Shown: positions 2,244 to 63,350 of the stretch, one piece after another
How positions within the stretch are numbered: the first letter of the stretch is position 1
Layout: each line of letters begins with the position of its first letter
Sequence record: PV287714.1
From: Escherichia phage HMD-9
Length of the DNA: 64,000 bases
Reading direction: 5' to 3' (one strand)
Position numbers and translations under genes: made by a program
Notes under the pieces: generated by a model
The model's input: the letters and a program-made list of their open reading frames with translations, nothing else
The model's database searches: none
What the model was told of the DNA's origin: nothing

Positions 2244-2273
2244 ATTATACCACATCCTTGTGGTAAAGTAAAC
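2244..2273 (-). promoter_or_regulatory. T4-type early promoter (GTTTAC -35, 18-bp spacer, TATAAT -10)
   Basis: Reverse complement reads GTTTACtttaccacaaggatgtggTATAAT; near-identical copy at 46938-46967. Confidence 0.6.
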
Positions 2274-4093
2274 TACTGGCTCATCCATTCTTTACGAAGG
2301 TCAGCATTATCTCCCATGAGCATTTCAAAAAGCTCTTTCCAATTCTCAGGAAGTTTAACAACATCATATACTGGATTTTGAATCATCTCACGATATTCAG
2401 ATTTTTCCAAAGAGCCAAGTCCCTTAATATAACGGATGCTATGTTTAGGTAGAGCATCTTTAGCACTCTCATATTCAGCGACTGTATAAAACCATTCTTG
2501 TTTTTTACCGACCTGAGCGATGATTACAGGAGTTTTGACAAAGCGAATTCTTCCTTGTTCAAACAGTTCTGGCCAATTACTAAAAAATCCGAGCAAAGAA
2601 GGATAAATGCTTCCTAGACCATCATGGTCAGCATCGGTCATAATAGCAATATTATGATAATTCAAGTTTTCGGCTTTTTCACCAAGAACTAATCCAGTGA
2701 TTGCGCAAATATCAAACAGTTCTTTGTTTTTAAGCATATCAGCATATGACATACCCCAACTGTTGAGAACTTTACCACGCAATGGATAACCGCCATGAAG
2801 TTCTTTATCACGAACATCAATAAGATATCCAATAGCCGAATCACCCTCAGTCAAGAAAAGAGTAGTGTCAGCATCTTTACCACAAAGATTCGCTTTAATA
2901 TGTTTATGAACCTTAGCTTTAGAAACCTTTTTAGCTGCTTTAGTTTCTGCTGCTTTTTCTGCCGCCAATTTACGAGCCAAGGCAGCTTCAATAATTGGCA
3001 TTAAAATTGCTTCATTATTTAAAATAGCACGTGAAATCTTTTTAGCATCAAGCTGAATATGACTACGAATTTCACCAAATGGAGAAGTCAGACGCTCTTT
3101 AGTTTGAGAGTCAAATCGCATGTTTTTCATATCACGAACAAACATAACGATAGTCAAACATTCTTTAACACGTGCTTTAGTTACGTCAATTTTAAATTTA
3201 CGTTTGATTTGTGGAATAAGGTCTTCACAAATATCATCCATAACACAATCAATATGATGGCCACCATTCTTAGTATGAATGTTATTGACGTATGTTAATT
3301 GACGAAAACCATCCGGCGAACGACCAACCGCAATAGAACAGTTTTCTTGTTCTTGAACGATAGCATGCTCATCATATTGGCGTGCATATTTCTTAAAATT
3401 ACCCTGAACCTTTTTACCATTAAAGGTAAATTGAATATCAGGATAAACTACTGCAAGTGTCTGGAGACGATCCAGTGTAATGTCAAGATAAACTTGAGAC
3501 AGCTCATTAGTTTCAAATGACATAAAATCAGGAATGAAAGTAACGCGAGTTCCTTTCCATTTTCCAGGAATATCTTCCCACGATTTATTTTCCATGCCGT
3601 TTGAACAACGAACTACAATATTATTTTGACCGTCGCCAGTTTCACCGACAAACATCACAGAAAAAATGTTAGTTAAACTAGAGCCAACACCGTTCATACC
3701 GCCAGTGACGCGTTCTTTGTCATCACCGAAGTTACCACCTGCTTTTGGAATAGTCCAGGCAGCAACAGGACCAGGAATTTCTTCACCGGTAGGTGTTTTA
3801 ACCATCGCCTGTGGAATACCACGACCGTTATCTTCAACTGTTACTTGATTGTTTTTGATAGTAACATTAATTTTATTTGCGAATTTAAACTTAGTACGAA
3901 TACCTTCATCTACTGAGTTATCGATAATTTCATCAATAAGCTTAACAAGACCAGGTACATACTGAACACTTTCCCATTTACCAAACAGAAAGCGCTCATG
4001 CATTTCATTAGCAGAAGAACCAATGTACATGCCGCTACGCTTTTTGATATGTTCAATATCGCTCAGAATTTTAATTTCATTCTTAATCATCAC
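2273..4093 (-). CDS. 39: DNA topoisomerase II large subunit gp39, unsplit 606-aa form (GyrB-like ATPase plus the part that is gene 60 in T4)
   Basis: 606-aa track ORF; N-terminus MMIKNEIKILSDIEHIKKRSGMYIGS and EDNGRGIP GyrB motifs; continuous through the region split by gene 60 in T4. Confidence 0.9.
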   Translation of the reverse strand: MMIKNEIKILSDIEHIKKRSGMYIGSSANEMHERFLFGKWESVQYVPGLVKLIDEIIDNSVDEGIRTKFKFANKINVTIKNNQVTVEDNGRGIPQAMVKTPTGEEIPGPVAAWTIPKAGGNFGDDKERVTGGMNGVGSSLTNIFSVMFVGETGDGQNNIVVRCSNGMENKSWEDIPGKWKGTRVTFIPDFMSFETNELSQVYLDITLDRLQTLAVVYPDIQFTFNGKKVQGNFKKYARQYDEHAIVQEQENCSIAVGRSPDGFRQLTYVNNIHTKNGGHHIDCVMDDICEDLIPQIKRKFKIDVTKARVKECLTIVMFVRDMKNMRFDSQTKERLTSPFGEIRSHIQLDAKKISRAILNNEAILMPIIEAALARKLAAEKAAETKAAKKVSKAKVHKHIKANLCGKDADTTLFLTEGDSAIGYLIDVRDKELHGGYPLRGKVLNSWGMSYADMLKNKELFDICAITGLVLGEKAENLNYHNIAIMTDADHDGLGSIYPSLLGFFSNWPELFEQGRIRFVKTPVIIAQVGKKQEWFYTVAEYESAKDALPKHSIRYIKGLGSLEKSEYREMIQNPVYDVVKLPENWKELFEMLMGDNADLRKEWMSQ

Positions 4094-27172: not shown

Positions 27173-27394
27173 TTAAATTAATACCAGCTGTCGGTGAAAA
27201 ATTGTTAATCCATCTGCATTAATTGACTTAACCACTGCGGTAAAGTGTTTTTGTTCTGGGTGAACTAATTTTTGAAATTCTACCTGAAATTTTAGTTGGA
27301 GATTTTCTGGTAAATCAAAAAGTGTTTCTGTTGCAGAAAGATTATATTTTTCTTTAAGAGACGCCATGTATTCTTGTGGGGTTATAGCAGTCAT
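27173..27394 (-). CDS. hypothetical small protein between regA and 43
   Basis: Track ORF trimmed to ATG immediately after regA stop; 73 aa. Confidence 0.4.
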   Translation of the reverse strand: MTAITPQEYMASLKEKYNLSATETLFDLPENLQLKFQVEFQKLVHPEQKHFTAVVKSINADGLTIFHRQLVLI

Positions 27395-27395
27395 A

Positions 27396-27764
27396 TTAAT
27401 TACCAATCGTATATTTTGGAACGAGTTTCCATTCATGTTTTTGTTTAAAAGAAATAACTCGGAAGTTATTGGTTAAATCTTTCATAAAAGTTCTTTGACC
27501 AGGAACGATTTCAATCAGTCCCCAATCTTCTAACAGCCATGCAATCGAATCACGACGAACTTCATCTTCTTCTGTCATTTCAACCTGGCGACCATCCATA
27601 CGAAGCATTTCTTTAAAATGAACGATATAGTATAGTCCTTTTTTCTGAAGAATATGACAGGACTGATACAGAACTTTATCTTTATTATTAGCAATTCCCA
27701 TGCGAGTCAAAGTTTCTTTTACTTTCAGAAAATCTTCAGGTTTTTTAAGAGTAATTTCAATCAT
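27396..27764 (-). CDS. regA: translational repressor RegA
   Basis: 122-aa track ORF identical in length and sequence to T4 RegA from memory. Confidence 0.95.
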   Translation of the reverse strand: MIEITLKKPEDFLKVKETLTRMGIANNKDKVLYQSCHILQKKGLYYIVHFKEMLRMDGRQVEMTEEDEVRRDSIAWLLEDWGLIEIVPGQRTFMKDLTNNFRVISFKQKHEWKLVPKYTIGN

Positions 27765-32669: not shown

Positions 32670-32856
32670 TATCTAAAATGTTGAAGTTAAAAGATACCGC
32701 CCAGTCAGTGCAGACCGTGACCTTTTTAATACAATTATCTTCAACCTCTAGTGGTTCAAACCAATATTCAATAATTTCTTTATGCCCAATATCATCTTTT
32801 ACTTCGCATTCAAAATGCTGACTCATCATAACATTTTTAAATTCATCAAAAGTCAT
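32593..32856 (-). CDS. hypothetical small protein
   Basis: 87-aa track ORF. Confidence 0.5.
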   Translation of the reverse strand: MTFDEFKNVMMSQHFECEVKDDIGHKEIIEYWFEPLEVEDNCIKKVTVCTDWAVSFNFNILDNDTPKSLQDMAVSCIKDAYCEVFDI

Positions 32857-33872
32857 TGTGTTGCCTCTACATATAACTGATTTGCATATTGAATAAGTGC
32901 TTCACGGTCAGAATCAGTGATGTCTGGAATTGCATTAATGTATTCTTCCATCAACGTCTGAAGAGATTGAACTTCAACTTCTTCACTATCATCTGACTCG
33001 ACAGAGTTATCAATCTTTGACACAACTCGTAATGAATGCACAACTTTTTCTAGTTCAGATTCGAACTTCGTTAGATTTTTGTCTACTTCAGTTACTATAA
33101 CACGTACTGATAGATTTGTAAAATCTTTATAGTCAATTTTTCCCTTAAATGGATATTGAATTCGACGATGCCAGGTAGTGTTGTTTGGAATAAATTCCAT
33201 TCGTTCTGTTTCTGTATCAAACATCCAGAACCCACGAGGGTCATTCTCGTCACCTGCAGTTAGTGTCCATGGTGTCCCAATATATCTGACGTTAGCAGCC
33301 TCAGAGATAGTATGGAAGTGACCAGACCACACTTCTTTGTAAGTCTTAAGGAAATCAGGTTCAAGACCGTGAGATTTCATTCCTTTATAAAAATAAAATC
33401 CATTCAGTTCCCAGTGACCGACACAAAAAGAAGCAGATGAAGTTTTAATATGTTCAAGAATTTCACCGGTATTTTCTTCACACATCCAAGGAATTAAATC
33501 AATCAAACATCCGTCAAAATCTACAGTAGTAGGCTTATCATATACTTTAACATTAGGATATTTAGCCAAAAGCTCAGTAGAAGCATTTGGATGCATTACA
33601 TTTTTGTAGTGAAGATCGTGATTTCCTACAATAGTATGTAATGTGATTCCAGCGTCATCAAGCATTTGAACTATTTCACGGGCGAATTCCATAGTTTTAT
33701 GTGTGATTGCTTTTCGCACATCAAAAATATCACCATATTGAATCCATACAGTAATTCCATTTTTCTTAGAATATTCTATCGCTTGCTTAATTCCATCAAT
33801 TTGAATACCGCGAATCCACTCATCATCAGCTTTAACGCCTAAATGCCAATCACCCAAGTTTAGTATTTTCAT
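32853..33872 (-). CDS. 47: recombination endonuclease subunit gp47 (Mre11/SbcD-like)
   Basis: 339-aa track ORF; phosphoesterase motifs GDWH, GNHD. Confidence 0.95.
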   Translation of the reverse strand: MKILNLGDWHLGVKADDEWIRGIQIDGIKQAIEYSKKNGITVWIQYGDIFDVRKAITHKTMEFAREIVQMLDDAGITLHTIVGNHDLHYKNVMHPNASTELLAKYPNVKVYDKPTTVDFDGCLIDLIPWMCEENTGEILEHIKTSSASFCVGHWELNGFYFYKGMKSHGLEPDFLKTYKEVWSGHFHTISEAANVRYIGTPWTLTAGDENDPRGFWMFDTETERMEFIPNNTTWHRRIQYPFKGKIDYKDFTNLSVRVIVTEVDKNLTKFESELEKVVHSLRVVSKIDNSVESDDSEEVEVQSLQTLMEEYINAIPDITDSDREALIQYANQLYVEATQ

Positions 33873-34473
33873 GGTGTCTTTTCCATCCTAATTTAGCTGC
33901 TTTTGAAACCAGTTCTTTAATTTTTCCTTTTGTCCATTCAGGACCAGGAGGTTCATGACATAACATTTGCTTAACTCCGTTATTATACCATTTTTTACCT
34001 TTATTATGTGATGAAGCTTTAAATTTATTTGACCTTCCTTTTACATAACCTTCTGGAATATAAGGCAAAAAGGCAGATTTTCCTGTTAATGGATCATGTG
34101 AATGTATATTTCCTTTACAATTATGAGAACCATATAATGGATGATTTTGTCCTTTATTATCTCTTCCAAATGAACCTTTTGGAGCAGCATATGACATATT
34201 AAAGAATAATGGATTTTTAACTGCATCATGCAATCGTTGATAATATAACTCGCATTTAATAGCTTCTTCACGCGTATCAAATTCAGCTAAAATGCATGAA
34301 TCAAATAAGTGAGGATTATCTGAAAGCTCTTTATTATAAATTTTCTTATACTTTTTAGATAAAACTGAACCATGATATCCAGCTAAATGCCTATCTAAAG
34401 ACGTAGATCCAATATAAAAAGGAGGAAGTTTATCTCCACTATATATTGTTAAATAAGTTATATATTTTTTCAT
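33850..34473 (-). CDS. GIY-YIG homing endonuclease (Seg-like), free-standing
   Basis: 207-aa track ORF; N-terminal YITYLTIYSGDKLPPFYIGSTS GIY-(9-10)-YIG motif; overlaps gene 47 start by 23 nt. Confidence 0.7.
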   Translation of the reverse strand: MKKYITYLTIYSGDKLPPFYIGSTSLDRHLAGYHGSVLSKKYKKIYNKELSDNPHLFDSCILAEFDTREEAIKCELYYQRLHDAVKNPLFFNMSYAAPKGSFGRDNKGQNHPLYGSHNCKGNIHSHDPLTGKSAFLPYIPEGYVKGRSNKFKASSHNKGKKWYNNGVKQMLCHEPPGPEWTKGKIKELVSKAAKLGWKRHHENTKLG

Positions 34474-34610
34474 ATATCAAGAACCGTCATTGAAATGCAA
34501 AATAAAATTATTGAAATAAATCCATCTGGAGTGCTAAAGAACCCAATCCAACATGCTCTAGTGAATAGATAAAATGCGAGAAAAAGTATCACATATCCAA
34601 GAAATATCAT
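34470..34610 (-). CDS. small hydrophobic peptide, 46 aa
   Basis: ORF below track cutoff with GGAG SD; stop overlaps seg ATG (ATGA); AT-rich so may be chance. Confidence 0.25.
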   Translation of the reverse strand: MIFLGYVILFLAFYLFTRACWIGFFSTPDGFISIILFCISMTVLDI

Positions 34611-34633
34611 TATATCAAACTCCGTATAAAGCT

Positions 34634-34651
34634 AAAGGGCCGAAGCCCTTT
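34634..34651 (-). terminator. UUCG-tetraloop GC hairpin overlapping alpha-gt stop codon
   Basis: aaagggc-cgaa-gcccttt. Confidence 0.5.
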
Positions 34652-35852
34652 ATTTTGTAATAATGTCAAACTGCTCTTTAAAGCAGAAGCTTGAATCTTG
34701 ATGCTGATACAAAAATTCATAAGCTTTTTCACGTTCACGGTCATAAAGAGCTCGGTCAGATGACAGTTCTTTAATACGTTCAAATGTTGATTCCATGTCA
34801 TTTTCATCAAACCAAACGATACCGCTATCATGAGAAATTAATGGAGTATTATCAACACGGAATTTTAAATTTTCGCCCGTAGATTTCCAAAATACTGGAA
34901 TTGTTCCACATGCACCAAGCTCGAGATGAGTATATTCTAAAGAACGTTGTAGATATTTTTTATCTAATTTACTCAGCTGATAGCCAAATCCGGATTTACT
35001 CATGCGTTCAAGCATTTCGCTATTTACGTAACGGTCAAGAATTTGCGTTGGCAAATTAGGAGCAATTTTAATTTGGTCTACTTGATGAAGACGATAATAC
35101 TCGTATGGAATTCCTTTTTCTTTAATAGGAATGAATGCTGGAGAACGTTCCAGACCTTCCATAATAGTACTTAGTCCTGCAGGTTTAAGATGTTTTTCAT
35201 GAAAATCAAACATCTGATAAAAGCCTTTCCATGTAGTAGTACGACCAATCCAACGGTTGATATTCATGTTAATTTCAGAAACATCTTTCCAGTAGGTTGA
35301 TCGAACCTTCGCAATATCCATAGGAGGCTGAAAGTTATATACGGTCGGTGCTTCTTCAATATCATCAAACAGAGAAACAGTTTCCGGATACCATTCTTTC
35401 ATCAAAACTTTATTAAAGTCACCATTATCAGAATGGCTAAAAATAACATCAGCTCGACGAACAGTTTCTTCTAATCCCAAATTTCGACGCAAAGAAAGAG
35501 AAGAATGGTCATGCTGATAAACTACAACACGAACCGAAGGTTTAATGTTATCAATAATTTTTTTATAGTTATTAATGGTGTCTTCTTCTACTGAAGTAGC
35601 AGGAACTGAATTGATAATTAAAATATCGCAATCATTTACCAGTTTAAGTGTTTTATCGTATTCTTTTGCCAATAAAACCGGAATTGAAAATGACTTATAA
35701 TCATGTGCGCAATTACGAGTAAATGATTTATCTTTAGCATAAACCAAAGTTACTTCATGACCATTTTTAATAAACCAATCACGTTGCTCAAGAGAAAATT
35801 TAGTTACACCGCAACCTTCAAGACCTCGAGCCATAAAAATACATACTTTCAT
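34650..35852 (-). CDS. agt: DNA alpha-glucosyltransferase
   Basis: 400-aa track ORF, MKVCIFMARGLEGCGVTKF...; matches T4 AGT. Confidence 0.95.
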   Translation of the reverse strand: MKVCIFMARGLEGCGVTKFSLEQRDWFIKNGHEVTLVYAKDKSFTRNCAHDYKSFSIPVLLAKEYDKTLKLVNDCDILIINSVPATSVEEDTINNYKKIIDNIKPSVRVVVYQHDHSSLSLRRNLGLEETVRRADVIFSHSDNGDFNKVLMKEWYPETVSLFDDIEEAPTVYNFQPPMDIAKVRSTYWKDVSEINMNINRWIGRTTTWKGFYQMFDFHEKHLKPAGLSTIMEGLERSPAFIPIKEKGIPYEYYRLHQVDQIKIAPNLPTQILDRYVNSEMLERMSKSGFGYQLSKLDKKYLQRSLEYTHLELGACGTIPVFWKSTGENLKFRVDNTPLISHDSGIVWFDENDMESTFERIKELSSDRALYDREREKAYEFLYQHQDSSFCFKEQFDIITK

Positions 35853-35876
35853 TTAATATCCTCATTGTTTTGGTTT

Positions 35877-35901
35877 ATTTTACCAAAAATTTATAAAGCA
35901 A
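35877..35901 (-). promoter_or_regulatory. MotA-dependent middle promoter for alpha-gt
   Basis: Minus strand TTGCTTTA, 11 bp, TAAAAT. Confidence 0.5.
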
Positions 35902-35902
35902 T

Positions 35903-35922
35903 ATAGGAGCCGAAGCTCCTAT
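35903..35922 (-). terminator. UUCG-tetraloop hairpin
   Basis: ataggagc-cgaa-gctcctat overlapping stop of upstream small ORF. Confidence 0.5.
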
Positions 35923-36092
35923 CCGCATAATACGCCATACAGAGGCTCATTAGAGCTTCTAAATTTTATACGCTTATATGTTATAGTTCCTTCTGCTTTA
36001 GCTTTATCATGAGACTCTTTAAAGCGTCTCATCATTTCTACTTTAGAGGAACGAATTTTATTATAATCTATTTCAGAAGTCTGGGTGTTCAT
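35919..36092 (-). CDS. hypothetical small protein, 57 aa
   Basis: ORF below track cutoff, ATG 3 nt after stop of upstream ORF. Confidence 0.35.
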   Translation of the reverse strand: MNTQTSEIDYNKIRSSKVEMMRRFKESHDKAKAEGTITYKRIKFRSSNEPLYGVLCG

Positions 36093-37424: not shown

Positions 37425-37694
37425 TTATCTAAGTAAACAGTATGCTTGGAACACTTTCTCCATCATCTTTTTAAATTCATGAATATCTATGTAATGACTA
37501 GTTAAATCAGCATGATATAAAAAGTCTAAAAACTTTTCATGTGTGCTAACATATTCACTTTCATTTAATTCAGAAACATGGCTTTCCCAATATCCAACAC
37601 CAGTCTTATTTGGGAAAAATGAAATTTTCATATATTGGTCAACATAGAAAATTCCATAATTTTCAATAGTAATAGAAATATTAATAAATTTCAT
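37425..37694 (-). CDS. hypothetical protein
   Basis: 89-aa track ORF. Confidence 0.45.
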   Translation of the reverse strand: MKFINISITIENYGIFYVDQYMKISFFPNKTGVGYWESHVSELNESEYVSTHEKFLDFLYHADLTSHYIDIHEFKKMMEKVFQAYCLLR

Positions 37695-53531: not shown

Positions 53532-54053
53532 TTATCCTTTCATTGAAGGTGTAACAGTTGTTAAATACTTAATCATAGCTTCAGCTTCTGATTTTGATAA
53601 TGAAATTTCTCCATTGTTTTGACGAATAGAAATAAAATCCGGATGACGGTCACCACCAGCTTTTAAAATACACATATAAGTATCAGTTTCATCTTCAATA
53701 TCTGAAATGATTGAAGCAGTTCCGCATGAATGTGGTTTTTGATAAATCAATGCAGCTTTTCTTCCACCGTTTGACTGTTCATAAACTTTTAACACATCAA
53801 ACAAATCACTTCTTTTATCAATAGCTAAGATGTTGTTTTCATCTTCAATGTTAAATCCTTCGGATACTTCATAAAGTGTCACCCATAAATCGCCAATATC
53901 AATGACAGCATTCACCTTTCCATGATTTTCAAGAGCATTACAAATTTTCTTAATTTCATCATAACTCATTTTAATAATATCATCTCCTTGAATAAGGAAG
54001 ATGTCATTTTTAAATTCAACACGAATTAAACCGCTTTCACTTGAAATAAACAT
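53532..54053 (-). CDS. hypothetical protein, tandem paralogue A
   Basis: 173-aa track ORF; C-terminus SKSEAEAMIKYLTTVTPSMKG parallels neighbour. Confidence 0.5.
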   Translation of the reverse strand: MFISSESGLIRVEFKNDIFLIQGDDIIKMSYDEIKKICNALENHGKVNAVIDIGDLWVTLYEVSEGFNIEDENNILAIDKRSDLFDVLKVYEQSNGGRKAALIYQKPHSCGTASIISDIEDETDTYMCILKAGGDRHPDFISIRQNNGEISLSKSEAEAMIKYLTTVTPSMKG

Positions 54054-62627: not shown

Positions 62628-63026
62628 TTATTTGTAGGTTTTCATCCAATTCTTGAACAAAGCCACGACGTCTTTCTCTTTAACGTTCAGTTTAACGTCC
62701 AACATTTTACCACCAGCTGCTCTCGTTTGGCGAATCTTAGCAGTACCGGTTTCGCCATTCCACTCAACATAATATTGTCCAGCGTTCATTGCAATACCAT
62801 CGCCGTAGTCTTCATTTTTAGAAGTGGTGAAGGCCAGCTTCATAGTCTTAGAGACACGAGCCTGCATGCCTGTCTGAAGGGCATTACGAACGCGAATAAC
62901 CTGAGGAGTGGCCTGGGTCAGGTTCTCATTCAGTTCTTCAGTGAACTCTTCAGATTCAAACATAGCCAAAAGTTCTTTAGATGCAGGAATTACATTCTCT
63001 GCGATAAATTCTTGATACGTTTTCAT
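62628..63026 (-). CDS. internal-protein-like protein with capsid targeting sequence
   Basis: 132-aa track ORF; N-terminal MKTYQEFIAE CTS. Confidence 0.6.
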   Translation of the reverse strand: MKTYQEFIAENVIPASKELLAMFESEEFTEELNENLTQATPQVIRVRNALQTGMQARVSKTMKLAFTTSKNEDYGDGIAMNAGQYYVEWNGETGTAKIRQTRAAGGKMLDVKLNVKEKDVVALFKNWMKTYK

Positions 63027-63089: not shown

Positions 63090-63350
63090 TTAAGCTTTAC
63101 CGCCAGAAATAATTCCGAAGTTGTTAAAATCATATCCAATATCGTCAACATCTACTTTAGGGCTTGCTACAACATAAGCAATTTCACTACGTTTTGCATA
63201 GGTGTTTATTTCTCTACCATCGCCGCCTAGGAAAGAATACCCATTACGTTTTAATGAGCCAAAGTCTTCCGCATCACCAATGAAAGCTTTAACTTTAAAT
63301 TTAGGACCTTTGGCATCTGCTTCAGCGATAAATTCTTGATACATTTTCAT
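63090..63350 (-). CDS. internal-protein-like protein with capsid targeting sequence
   Basis: 86-aa track ORF; N-terminal MKMYQEFIAE CTS. Confidence 0.6.
   Translation of the reverse strand: MKMYQEFIAEADAKGPKFKVKAFIGDAEDFGSLKRNGYSFLGGDGREINTYAKRSEIAYVVASPKVDVDDIGYDFNNFGIISGGKA

Follow-up and report, generated by a model that had tools for sequence, protein, structure and literature searches.

Why does a T4-like phage carry an additional gene at the junction of genes 47.1 and 47, and what kind of protein does it encode? We examined this question in a 64,000-nucleotide (nt) stretch of Escherichia phage HMD-9 (PV287714.1), hereafter called the window, which comes from a T4-like phage of the genus Tequatrovirus and, by tblastn comparison with T4, spans rIIA to approximately denV. 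The additional gene is a minus-strand open reading frame (ORF) at the start of gene 47. We conclude that its product is likely a functional Seg-type homing endonuclease, encoded by a free-standing gene on a mobile 601-nt insertion that would home in mixed infection. This conclusion draws on the protein's fold, its homology to Seg proteins, its catalytic residues, purifying selection, the clean insertion, its patchy occurrence across haplotypes, its fidelity to one site and its association with particular gene 47 codons. The features under discussion are as follows.

33850-34473, minus strand: predicted free-standing Seg-type GIY-YIG homing endonuclease gene, 207 amino acids plus stop, ATG start (ORF list, PHROG matches, ratio of nonsynonymous to synonymous substitution rates, dN/dS)
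34174-34473, minus strand: predicted N-terminal GIY-YIG catalytic domain, approximately amino acids 1-100 (invariant residues, fold)
33853-34173, minus strand: C-terminal basic region, amino acids 101-207, presumed DNA-binding and site-specificity module (isoelectric point, weak match to 1i3j)
33873-34473, equivalently 33866-34466, minus strand: 601-nt segment without a T4 counterpart (pairwise alignment with T4)
34467-34473 and 33866-33872: ATGAAAA, 7-nt direct repeats bracketing the 601-nt segment
33855-33864, minus strand: four synonymous changes relative to T4 in gene 47 codons 3-6, candidate target-site protection (comparison of carriers and empty sites)
32853-33872, minus strand: gene 47, Mre11/SbcD-like recombination nuclease subunit, presumed homing target (ORF list, annotation of homologous records, 5′ conservation across genera)
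34470-34610, minus strand: gene 47.1, 46-amino-acid predicted membrane protein (ORF list; PHROG 6693, expect value (E) 1.5e-31)

The insertion at the start of gene 47

The minus-strand gene order is alpha-gt, 47.1, the endonuclease ORF and gene 47. The preliminary description had reported a 207-amino-acid ORF at 33850-34473, which we recovered on the minus strand with an ATG start, and had placed it between gene 47 and alpha-gt; it does adjoin gene 47, but 47.1 separates it from alpha-gt. The endonuclease ATG overlaps the 47.1 stop codon by 4 nt (ATGA). Its 3′ end overlaps the gene 47 start at 33850-33872, exactly the 23 nt given earlier, and the protein's tail (…HENTKLG*) consists of the first codons of gene 47 read out of frame.

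In T4, the same ATGA overlap joins 47.1 directly to gene 47 and no gene separates them, in agreement with the preliminary description, which knew of no seg gene at this junction in T4. Pairwise alignment with T4 places a clean insertion of 601 nt in the window (gap columns 215-815), flanked by near-identical sequence on both sides, and the same 601-nt indel recurs in a 25-sequence alignment. The insert begins at the position of T4's gene 47 start codon, and gene 47 restarts at the ATGAAAA copy within the insert's 3′ end. Since the 47.1 stop codon overlaps the endonuclease ATG as it overlaps the gene 47 ATG in T4, the translation start that once served gene 47 now serves the endonuclease. The insert's guanine-plus-cytosine content is 0.30, compared to 0.36 for gene 47, and the codons for Mre11 motif I of gene 47 (GDWH) lie 16-27 nt from the insertion point. 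Many Escherichia and Shigella phage records match a 2.8-kilobase (kb) piece around the endonuclease gene at 97-98% identity.

A further resemblance was observed at this boundary. The 3′ end of the endonuclease gene (33881-33895, minus strand) contains CTAAATTAGGATGG, which is similar to the T4-type TTAAATTTAGGTGATTGG (gene 47 codons 4-9) located just downstream, and fold prediction pairs the T4-type codons with the CTAAATTAGGATGG segment. The resemblance may have arisen by chance or be left over from the original insertion.

The predicted protein and its site fidelity

The ORF matches PHROG 10820 (E 1e-94) and, more weakly, phrog_314, labelled 'homing endonuclease' (E 5e-18), and it has 170 database homologs. 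Together with a dN/dS of 0.05-0.06 between its sublineages, the PHROG 10820 match and the number of homologs mark it as a genuine gene rather than a chance ORF. In the homologs, residues 1 to ~115 are found joined to differing C-terminal regions, often NUMOD3, and among the 120 homologs listed, one (P0064) has a precomputed match to the Pfam GIY-YIG family (PF01541). A search of the protein against NCBIfam returned nothing relevant.

We built an AlphaFold model from an alignment of 45 homologs. The model is confident over residues 1-100 and has GIY-YIG topology (b-b-a-a-b-a), in which helices flank a sheet of three strands, the arrangement of the catalytic domain of I-TevI. In a Foldseek search of the PDB, the best matches were to that same I-TevI domain (probability 1.0), and the viral proteins nearest to the model in structure are of the GIY-YIG, Seg-like or NUMOD kind. 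Sixteen columns are invariant across the 45 homologs, which extend down to ~35% identity: Y7, Y11, G13, P17, Y20-I21-G22-S23, Y33, G35, S39, L56, F57, A71, E75 and N92. The predicted catalytic Glu and Asn, E75 and N92 (E75 and N90 in I-TevI), correspond to the Glu and Asn in alignments with SegE, SegB and SegA.

We compared the family with SegA-G and I-TevI/II sequences extracted from the T4 record. The family's N-terminal profile detected SegE (3e-9), SegG (1e-8) and SegB, SegC, SegD and SegA (5e-6 to 7e-5) by hmmsearch, and had no match to I-TevI, I-TevII or SegF (E 0.6 for SegF). Aligned with hhalign to an alignment of SegA-G, the family profile scored 97.8% probability (E 1e-12). A forced global hhalign to the single I-TevI sequence was not significant, and we did not use it for mapping residues. 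Thus, the comparison with SegA-G and I-TevI that had been proposed earlier yields SegE and SegG as the best T4 matches and no match to I-TevI.

The GIY-YIG catalytic domain of the preliminary description is therefore supported by the fold, by the SegA-G profile comparison and by the invariant YIG, Glu and Asn in 45 homologs. A lack of catalytic residues on alignment would have spoken against it; instead, YIG, Glu and Asn are all present and invariant. The motif had been written as TIY-x9-YIG, and here the module stands while the spacing does not, as the residues are TIY(9-11)-x8-YIG(20-22). Y7 and Y11 are both invariant, both lie in strand 1 and are equally good candidates for the GIY tyrosine; alignments to SegE and to SegB differ by one register on which of them it is. 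Altogether, these comparisons support the prediction that the protein is a Seg-type GIY-YIG homing endonuclease.

Residues 101-207 form the basic C-terminal domain noted earlier, with an isoelectric point of 9.97 and 20 Lys plus Arg compared to 7 Asp plus Glu. The region contains a NUMOD3-like 'GxNHPLYGSHN' segment, a short basic helix and two beta-hairpin units that end in PEGYVKGR and PEWTKGK. By profile it weakly resembles 1i3j, the DNA-binding domain of I-TevI (E 0.05). Pfam found no domain in this region, and no zinc finger or helix-turn-helix was detected in the protein. The region is presumed to be the DNA-binding module.

The location of related genes follows this C-terminal module. 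At least four other T4-like groups have full-length homologs, 50-70% identical, immediately 5′ of gene 47: the QL01-like coliphages (loci L024 and L027), Klebsiella phage SmallBear, Serratia phage LC53 (Winklervirus) and Aeromonas phage L9-6 (Biquartavirus). In Yersinia phage TG1, a homolog of the catalytic domain only, with a NUMOD3-type C-terminus, adjoins a topoisomerase gene. Every homolog with the C-terminus of the window protein is found upstream of gene 47, and NUMOD3 C-termini go with other locations. Location thus tracks the C-terminal module, which fits a modular, site-specific enzyme that targets the conserved gene 47 5′ end.

The QL01-like locus L024 has a different arrangement. 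Its endonuclease homolog (1897-2514) stands where the empty-site relative L021 has 47.1 (2361-2504), and the L024 insertion seems to have replaced 47.1 rather than to have been added after it.

Distribution, selection and alternative readings

We surveyed the junction in the GenBank phage collection, as IMG/VR offered only 28 loci, of which 6 were close (all 6 with an empty site), and was not used for the population comparison. Among ~500 Tequatrovirus records, 65-68 carry the gene and ~432 have an empty junction, so ~13% are carriers. The carriers include AndreasVesalius and TadeuszReichstein from the BASEL collection. A gene occupying this position in T4 and in all of its relatives would have counted against an insertion; T4 and ~87% of the Tequatrovirus records are without it. 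In many Tequatrovirus records the protein is 100% identical, and most alleles are intact and identical.

We then aligned 2.6 kb of flank from 9 carrier and 16 empty loci. Diversity of the left flank, on the alpha-gt side, is equal in carriers and non-carriers, and carriers are spread over several alpha-gt haplotypes that are also found in non-carriers. In carriers, diversity is lowered in the first ~300 nt of gene 47 and nowhere else. This mosaic pattern suggests that the gene moved between genomes together with short stretches of flank, as homing would produce. The earlier proposal of a mobile insertion is well matched by the clean 601-nt indel with its 7-nt repeat, the several flank haplotypes and the occupation of the same site in other genera.

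Within the flanks, the only near-fixed differences between carriers and empty sites next to the insertion are four synonymous changes. Gene 47 codons 3-6 read ATT TTA AAT TTA in T4 and ATA CTA AAC TTG in the window, differing at positions 33864, 33863, 33858 and 33855. The changed codons are found in 64 of 65 carrier records, compared to ~9 of 432 empty sites; T4 codons occupy ~422 of those 432 (~97%), and RB14 has intermediate codons at an empty site. In a second genus, the QL01-like phages, the occupied locus L024 and the empty loci L021, L022 and L030 differ synonymously at the same four codons.

Several observations weigh against a protective role for these changes. Seven or eight phages, SHFML-26 among them, combine an empty site with carrier-type codons, and a lone carrier, ERS-1, has T4-type codons beside an otherwise identical gene, though its low-quality record earns this exception little weight either way. 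All four changes lie within 18 nt of the insertion, where linkage to a founder haplotype would give the same association. In a permutation test, four differences in 10 nt had a P-value of 0.98 when allowed anywhere and 0.004 only at a pre-specified spot. The clustering is not significant because the region is mosaic, and the argument for protection consequently rests on the association between codons and occupancy. On balance, we lean slightly toward the four codon changes protecting the carrier from its own endonuclease.

The same codons could instead act on gene 47 expression. In the carrier context, the mean unpaired probability at the gene 47 start is 0.64 with the window codons and 0.51 without them, which gives modest support to the codon changes opening the new translation start of gene 47. 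Such an effect would suit an active nuclease that is kept mainly for its benefit to the phage, by excluding competitors through gene 47 or by local recombination or amplification, with the codon changes serving gene 47 translation. Strong purifying selection and persistence at one site across genera are also in keeping with this benefit, and in a 2026 paper (PMC13096335) SegB is reported to amplify a locus and thereby to help phage T6 escape a defence system. However, the accessibility difference is small and is reversed in the empty-site context (0.47 vs 0.51), the distribution among near-identical phages is patchy at 13%, and nothing at the locus suggests an anti-defence cargo. We therefore find a gene kept mainly for phage benefit unlikely. 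It is similarly doubtful that the endonuclease is a partly domesticated, long-lived specialist of the gene 47 start in at least five T4-like groups, forming part of gene 47 translation control, acting as a weapon against a competitor's recombination-nuclease gene, or both.

We also considered whether the gene could be an ancestral accessory gene, vertically inherited and precisely lost from T4 and most of its relatives. The full-length homologs at the same site in several T4-like genera could reflect such an old vertical presence, and the seven or eight empty sites with carrier codons are what precise deletion between the ATGAAAA repeats would leave behind. However, the empty ATGA junction is found not only in ~87% of Tequatrovirus but also in other groups (for example L014, L019-L023 and L030), and under vertical inheritance a precise deletion through a 7-nt repeat would have had to happen independently a great many times. 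The several left-flank haplotypes shared by carriers and non-carriers indicate horizontal movement instead, and related catalytic domains occur at other loci with other DNA-binding modules. Ancestral presence followed by repeated loss is thus quite unlikely.

A third alternative is that the gene is a decaying relic without cleavage activity, retained because its deletion would harm gene 47 expression; the gene 47 start codon lies inside the ORF and any deletion must be precise. Several properties of the protein point in this direction or weigh against the reading as a homing endonuclease. Its only Pfam match, to GIY-YIG (amino acids 4-84; 21.4 bits, E 3e-4), falls just below the gathering threshold of 22.6, and PDB sequence searches miss the catalytic domain, whether the query is the protein alone or the family profile. 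The position of the canonical I-TevI R27 is occupied by R28 in the window protein, and this column varies among R, K, N, Q and S across the 45 homologs, with R68 being nearly invariant; the candidates for a basic residue replacing R27 are R28, K40/K41 and R68. In addition, two alleles are disrupted: that of GEP001 has a stop at codon 183 and that of ESh36 (L042, ON528746.1), a record flagged UNVERIFIED, has a 1-nt frameshift.

Measurements of selection argue against such decay. The gene has two sublineages that are separated by 17-24 differences in 600 nt and by 3-6 amino acid changes, and their dN/dS indicates strong constraint at the protein level. Sixteen positions, including the catalytic Glu and Asn, have stayed invariant in homologs as distant as ~35% identity. 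The T4 Seg proteins are also without Arg at the R27 position and have a 'GY.GS' motif in place of the Arg helix, and several of them are reported to be active in published work; we therefore count the variable Arg neither for nor against activity. Disrupted alleles are few beside the intact, identical majority, and one of the two is in the unverified record. For these reasons, an inactive relic is very unlikely.

Two further apparent cases of decay were rejected. What looks like a 124-bp deletion in KNP1 and KNP5 (L034, KX452698.1) is a stretch of Ns, in a record flagged UNVERIFIED, and ERS-1 (L055, PP337211.1), also UNVERIFIED, has homopolymer-length indels outside the gene as well as within it. 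The apparent pseudogenes in the ERS-1, KNP5 and ESh36 records are not to be taken at face value.

Finally, the identification as an HNH endonuclease, by which RefSeq records (e.g. NC_054924, NC_054916 and NC_054911) and the PHROG 10820 description label the gene, and which has spread to homologs in many genera, is exceedingly improbable: no HNH-family Pfam model matched at E up to 1, no HNH structure was among the significant fold matches, which are to GIY-YIG nucleases only, the profile is homologous to T4 Seg proteins and not to MobA-E, to which the endonuclease has no similarity, and other GenBank records of the family read 'GIY-YIG homing endonuclease', 'homing endonuclease' or 'putative homing endonuclease'. 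Consequently, the HNH label is unsupported.

Proposed mechanism and comparison with known systems

The mechanism by which the Seg-type endonuclease would home at this site begins with its expression, for which the neighbouring features upstream are relevant.

34650-35852, minus strand: alpha-gt (ORF list)
34609-34652, minus strand: upstream signals common to the window and T4
34633-34652: alpha-gt terminator hairpin (scan; annotated as a terminator in related records)
34627-34633: MotA-box-like AGCTTTA, 12 nt from TATAAT (34609-34614)

We take AGCTTTA and TATAAT upstream of 47.1 to be a candidate T4 middle promoter, going by their resemblance to the MotA-box consensus. A scan for sigma-70 promoters found sites that were no more numerous than in shuffled sequence. 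Transcription of the endonuclease probably starts at upstream promoters and takes in 47.1 and 47 as well, and its translation is probably at a low level, by coupling to 47.1. The endonuclease would use gene 47's former start, with a new gene 47 start being supplied inside the endonuclease 3′ end.

When a carrier and a relative with an empty junction infect the same cell, the C-terminal module would bind the conserved gene 47 5′ end, and the GIY-YIG domain would then make a double-strand break near the gene 47 start of the empty-site genome. Recombination-dependent repair would copy the endonuclease gene and a short flank from the carrier. The gene would thereby spread, and the recipient's nearby markers would be locally excluded, an outcome that the preliminary description had also anticipated. 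The carrier would be protected by the insertion, which splits the target site, and the four gene 47 codon changes probably alter the site too. We modelled this sequence of events on SegB, SegE, SegF and SegG (PMC2988022, PMC2330249). We infer the cleavage activity, the target position, the protective role of the codons and the exclusion of markers.

Several observations concern the rest of the window. Across positions 1-64000, no homolog of T4 segA-G, mobA-E or I-TevI-III was found at E 1e-5, and the ORF at 33850-34473 is the window's only endonuclease-like gene without a T4 counterpart. T4 itself has seven homing endonuclease genes in the same span (~0.2-66 kb): mobA, segF, segA, mobB, mobC, I-TevII and mobD. 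T4 mobB, an HNH gene located between alpha-gt and a-gt.2, is missing from the window (35853-36092), where an a-gt.2-like ORF (35919-36092) directly follows alpha-gt. A single 605-amino-acid ORF (2273-4090, minus strand) is 98% identical over 473 amino acids to T4 gene 39, whose product in T4 has 516 amino acids. This suggests that the ORF is an unsplit gene for the topoisomerase large subunit, which in T4 is split into 39 and 60 around mobA. Minus-strand ORFs of 86-173 amino acids at 53532-54053, 62628-63026, 63090-63350, 37425-37694 and 27173-27436 have no T4 tblastn match at E 1e-5; these five are probably lineage-specific accessory genes in hypervariable regions.

The endonuclease described here is a new, uncharacterised member of the well-known Seg class, and conceptually it is routine, as the Seg paradigm already accommodates it. 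With the start of gene 47, the known T-even set would gain a new homing site. As free-standing homing endonucleases shape the survival of markers during T4-like co-infection, they are relevant to phage cocktails and to T-even engineering. The junction also offers natural study material in the form of carrier sites, empty sites of the sensitive type and empty sites with carrier-type codons. For databases, the consequence is that a widely propagated 'HNH endonuclease' label is unsupported by the analysis here. In the literature text that could be searched, including reviews of mobile elements in T4 relatives, we found no description of an endonuclease gene at the 47.1/47 junction.

Among the T4 proteins, SegE and SegG are the closest to the endonuclease, with 27-28% BLASTP identity over 109-193 amino acids. 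They share its size (205-210 amino acids), its free-standing position between conserved genes, and its signature of YIG…GY.GS followed by a Glu helix and an Asn. They differ in being located at hoc/uvsW and 32/59, presumably with other targets, and their identity to the endonuclease is only ~27%. In the endonuclease family, one more Tyr is invariant than in SegE and SegG, and the hairpin is two residues shorter (TIY-x8-YIG). I-TevI (PDB 1ln0, 1mk0 and 1i3j) also differs: it is encoded in an intron (td), its catalytic domain has no significant sequence similarity to the family, and its R27 helix has no conserved counterpart there.

In its arrangement, the locus resembles segF, which shares 11 nt with the end of gene 56 much as the endonuclease gene overlaps 47.1 and 47, although segF lies downstream of its target gene and the endonuclease gene lies upstream of its presumed target. 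SegF is the model for localised marker exclusion, whereby a free-standing endonuclease cuts a neighbouring conserved gene in a phage that does not carry it (Belle et al. 2002, cited in PMC2988022). In its distribution, the gene is comparable with SegH and other seg-like genes, which are unequally distributed among very close relatives of T4 and replace or add to T4's own set (Sandegren et al. 2005, cited in PMC2988022; PMC2993671, Table 5). The endonuclease at the 47.1/47 junction is an instance of the same phenomenon.

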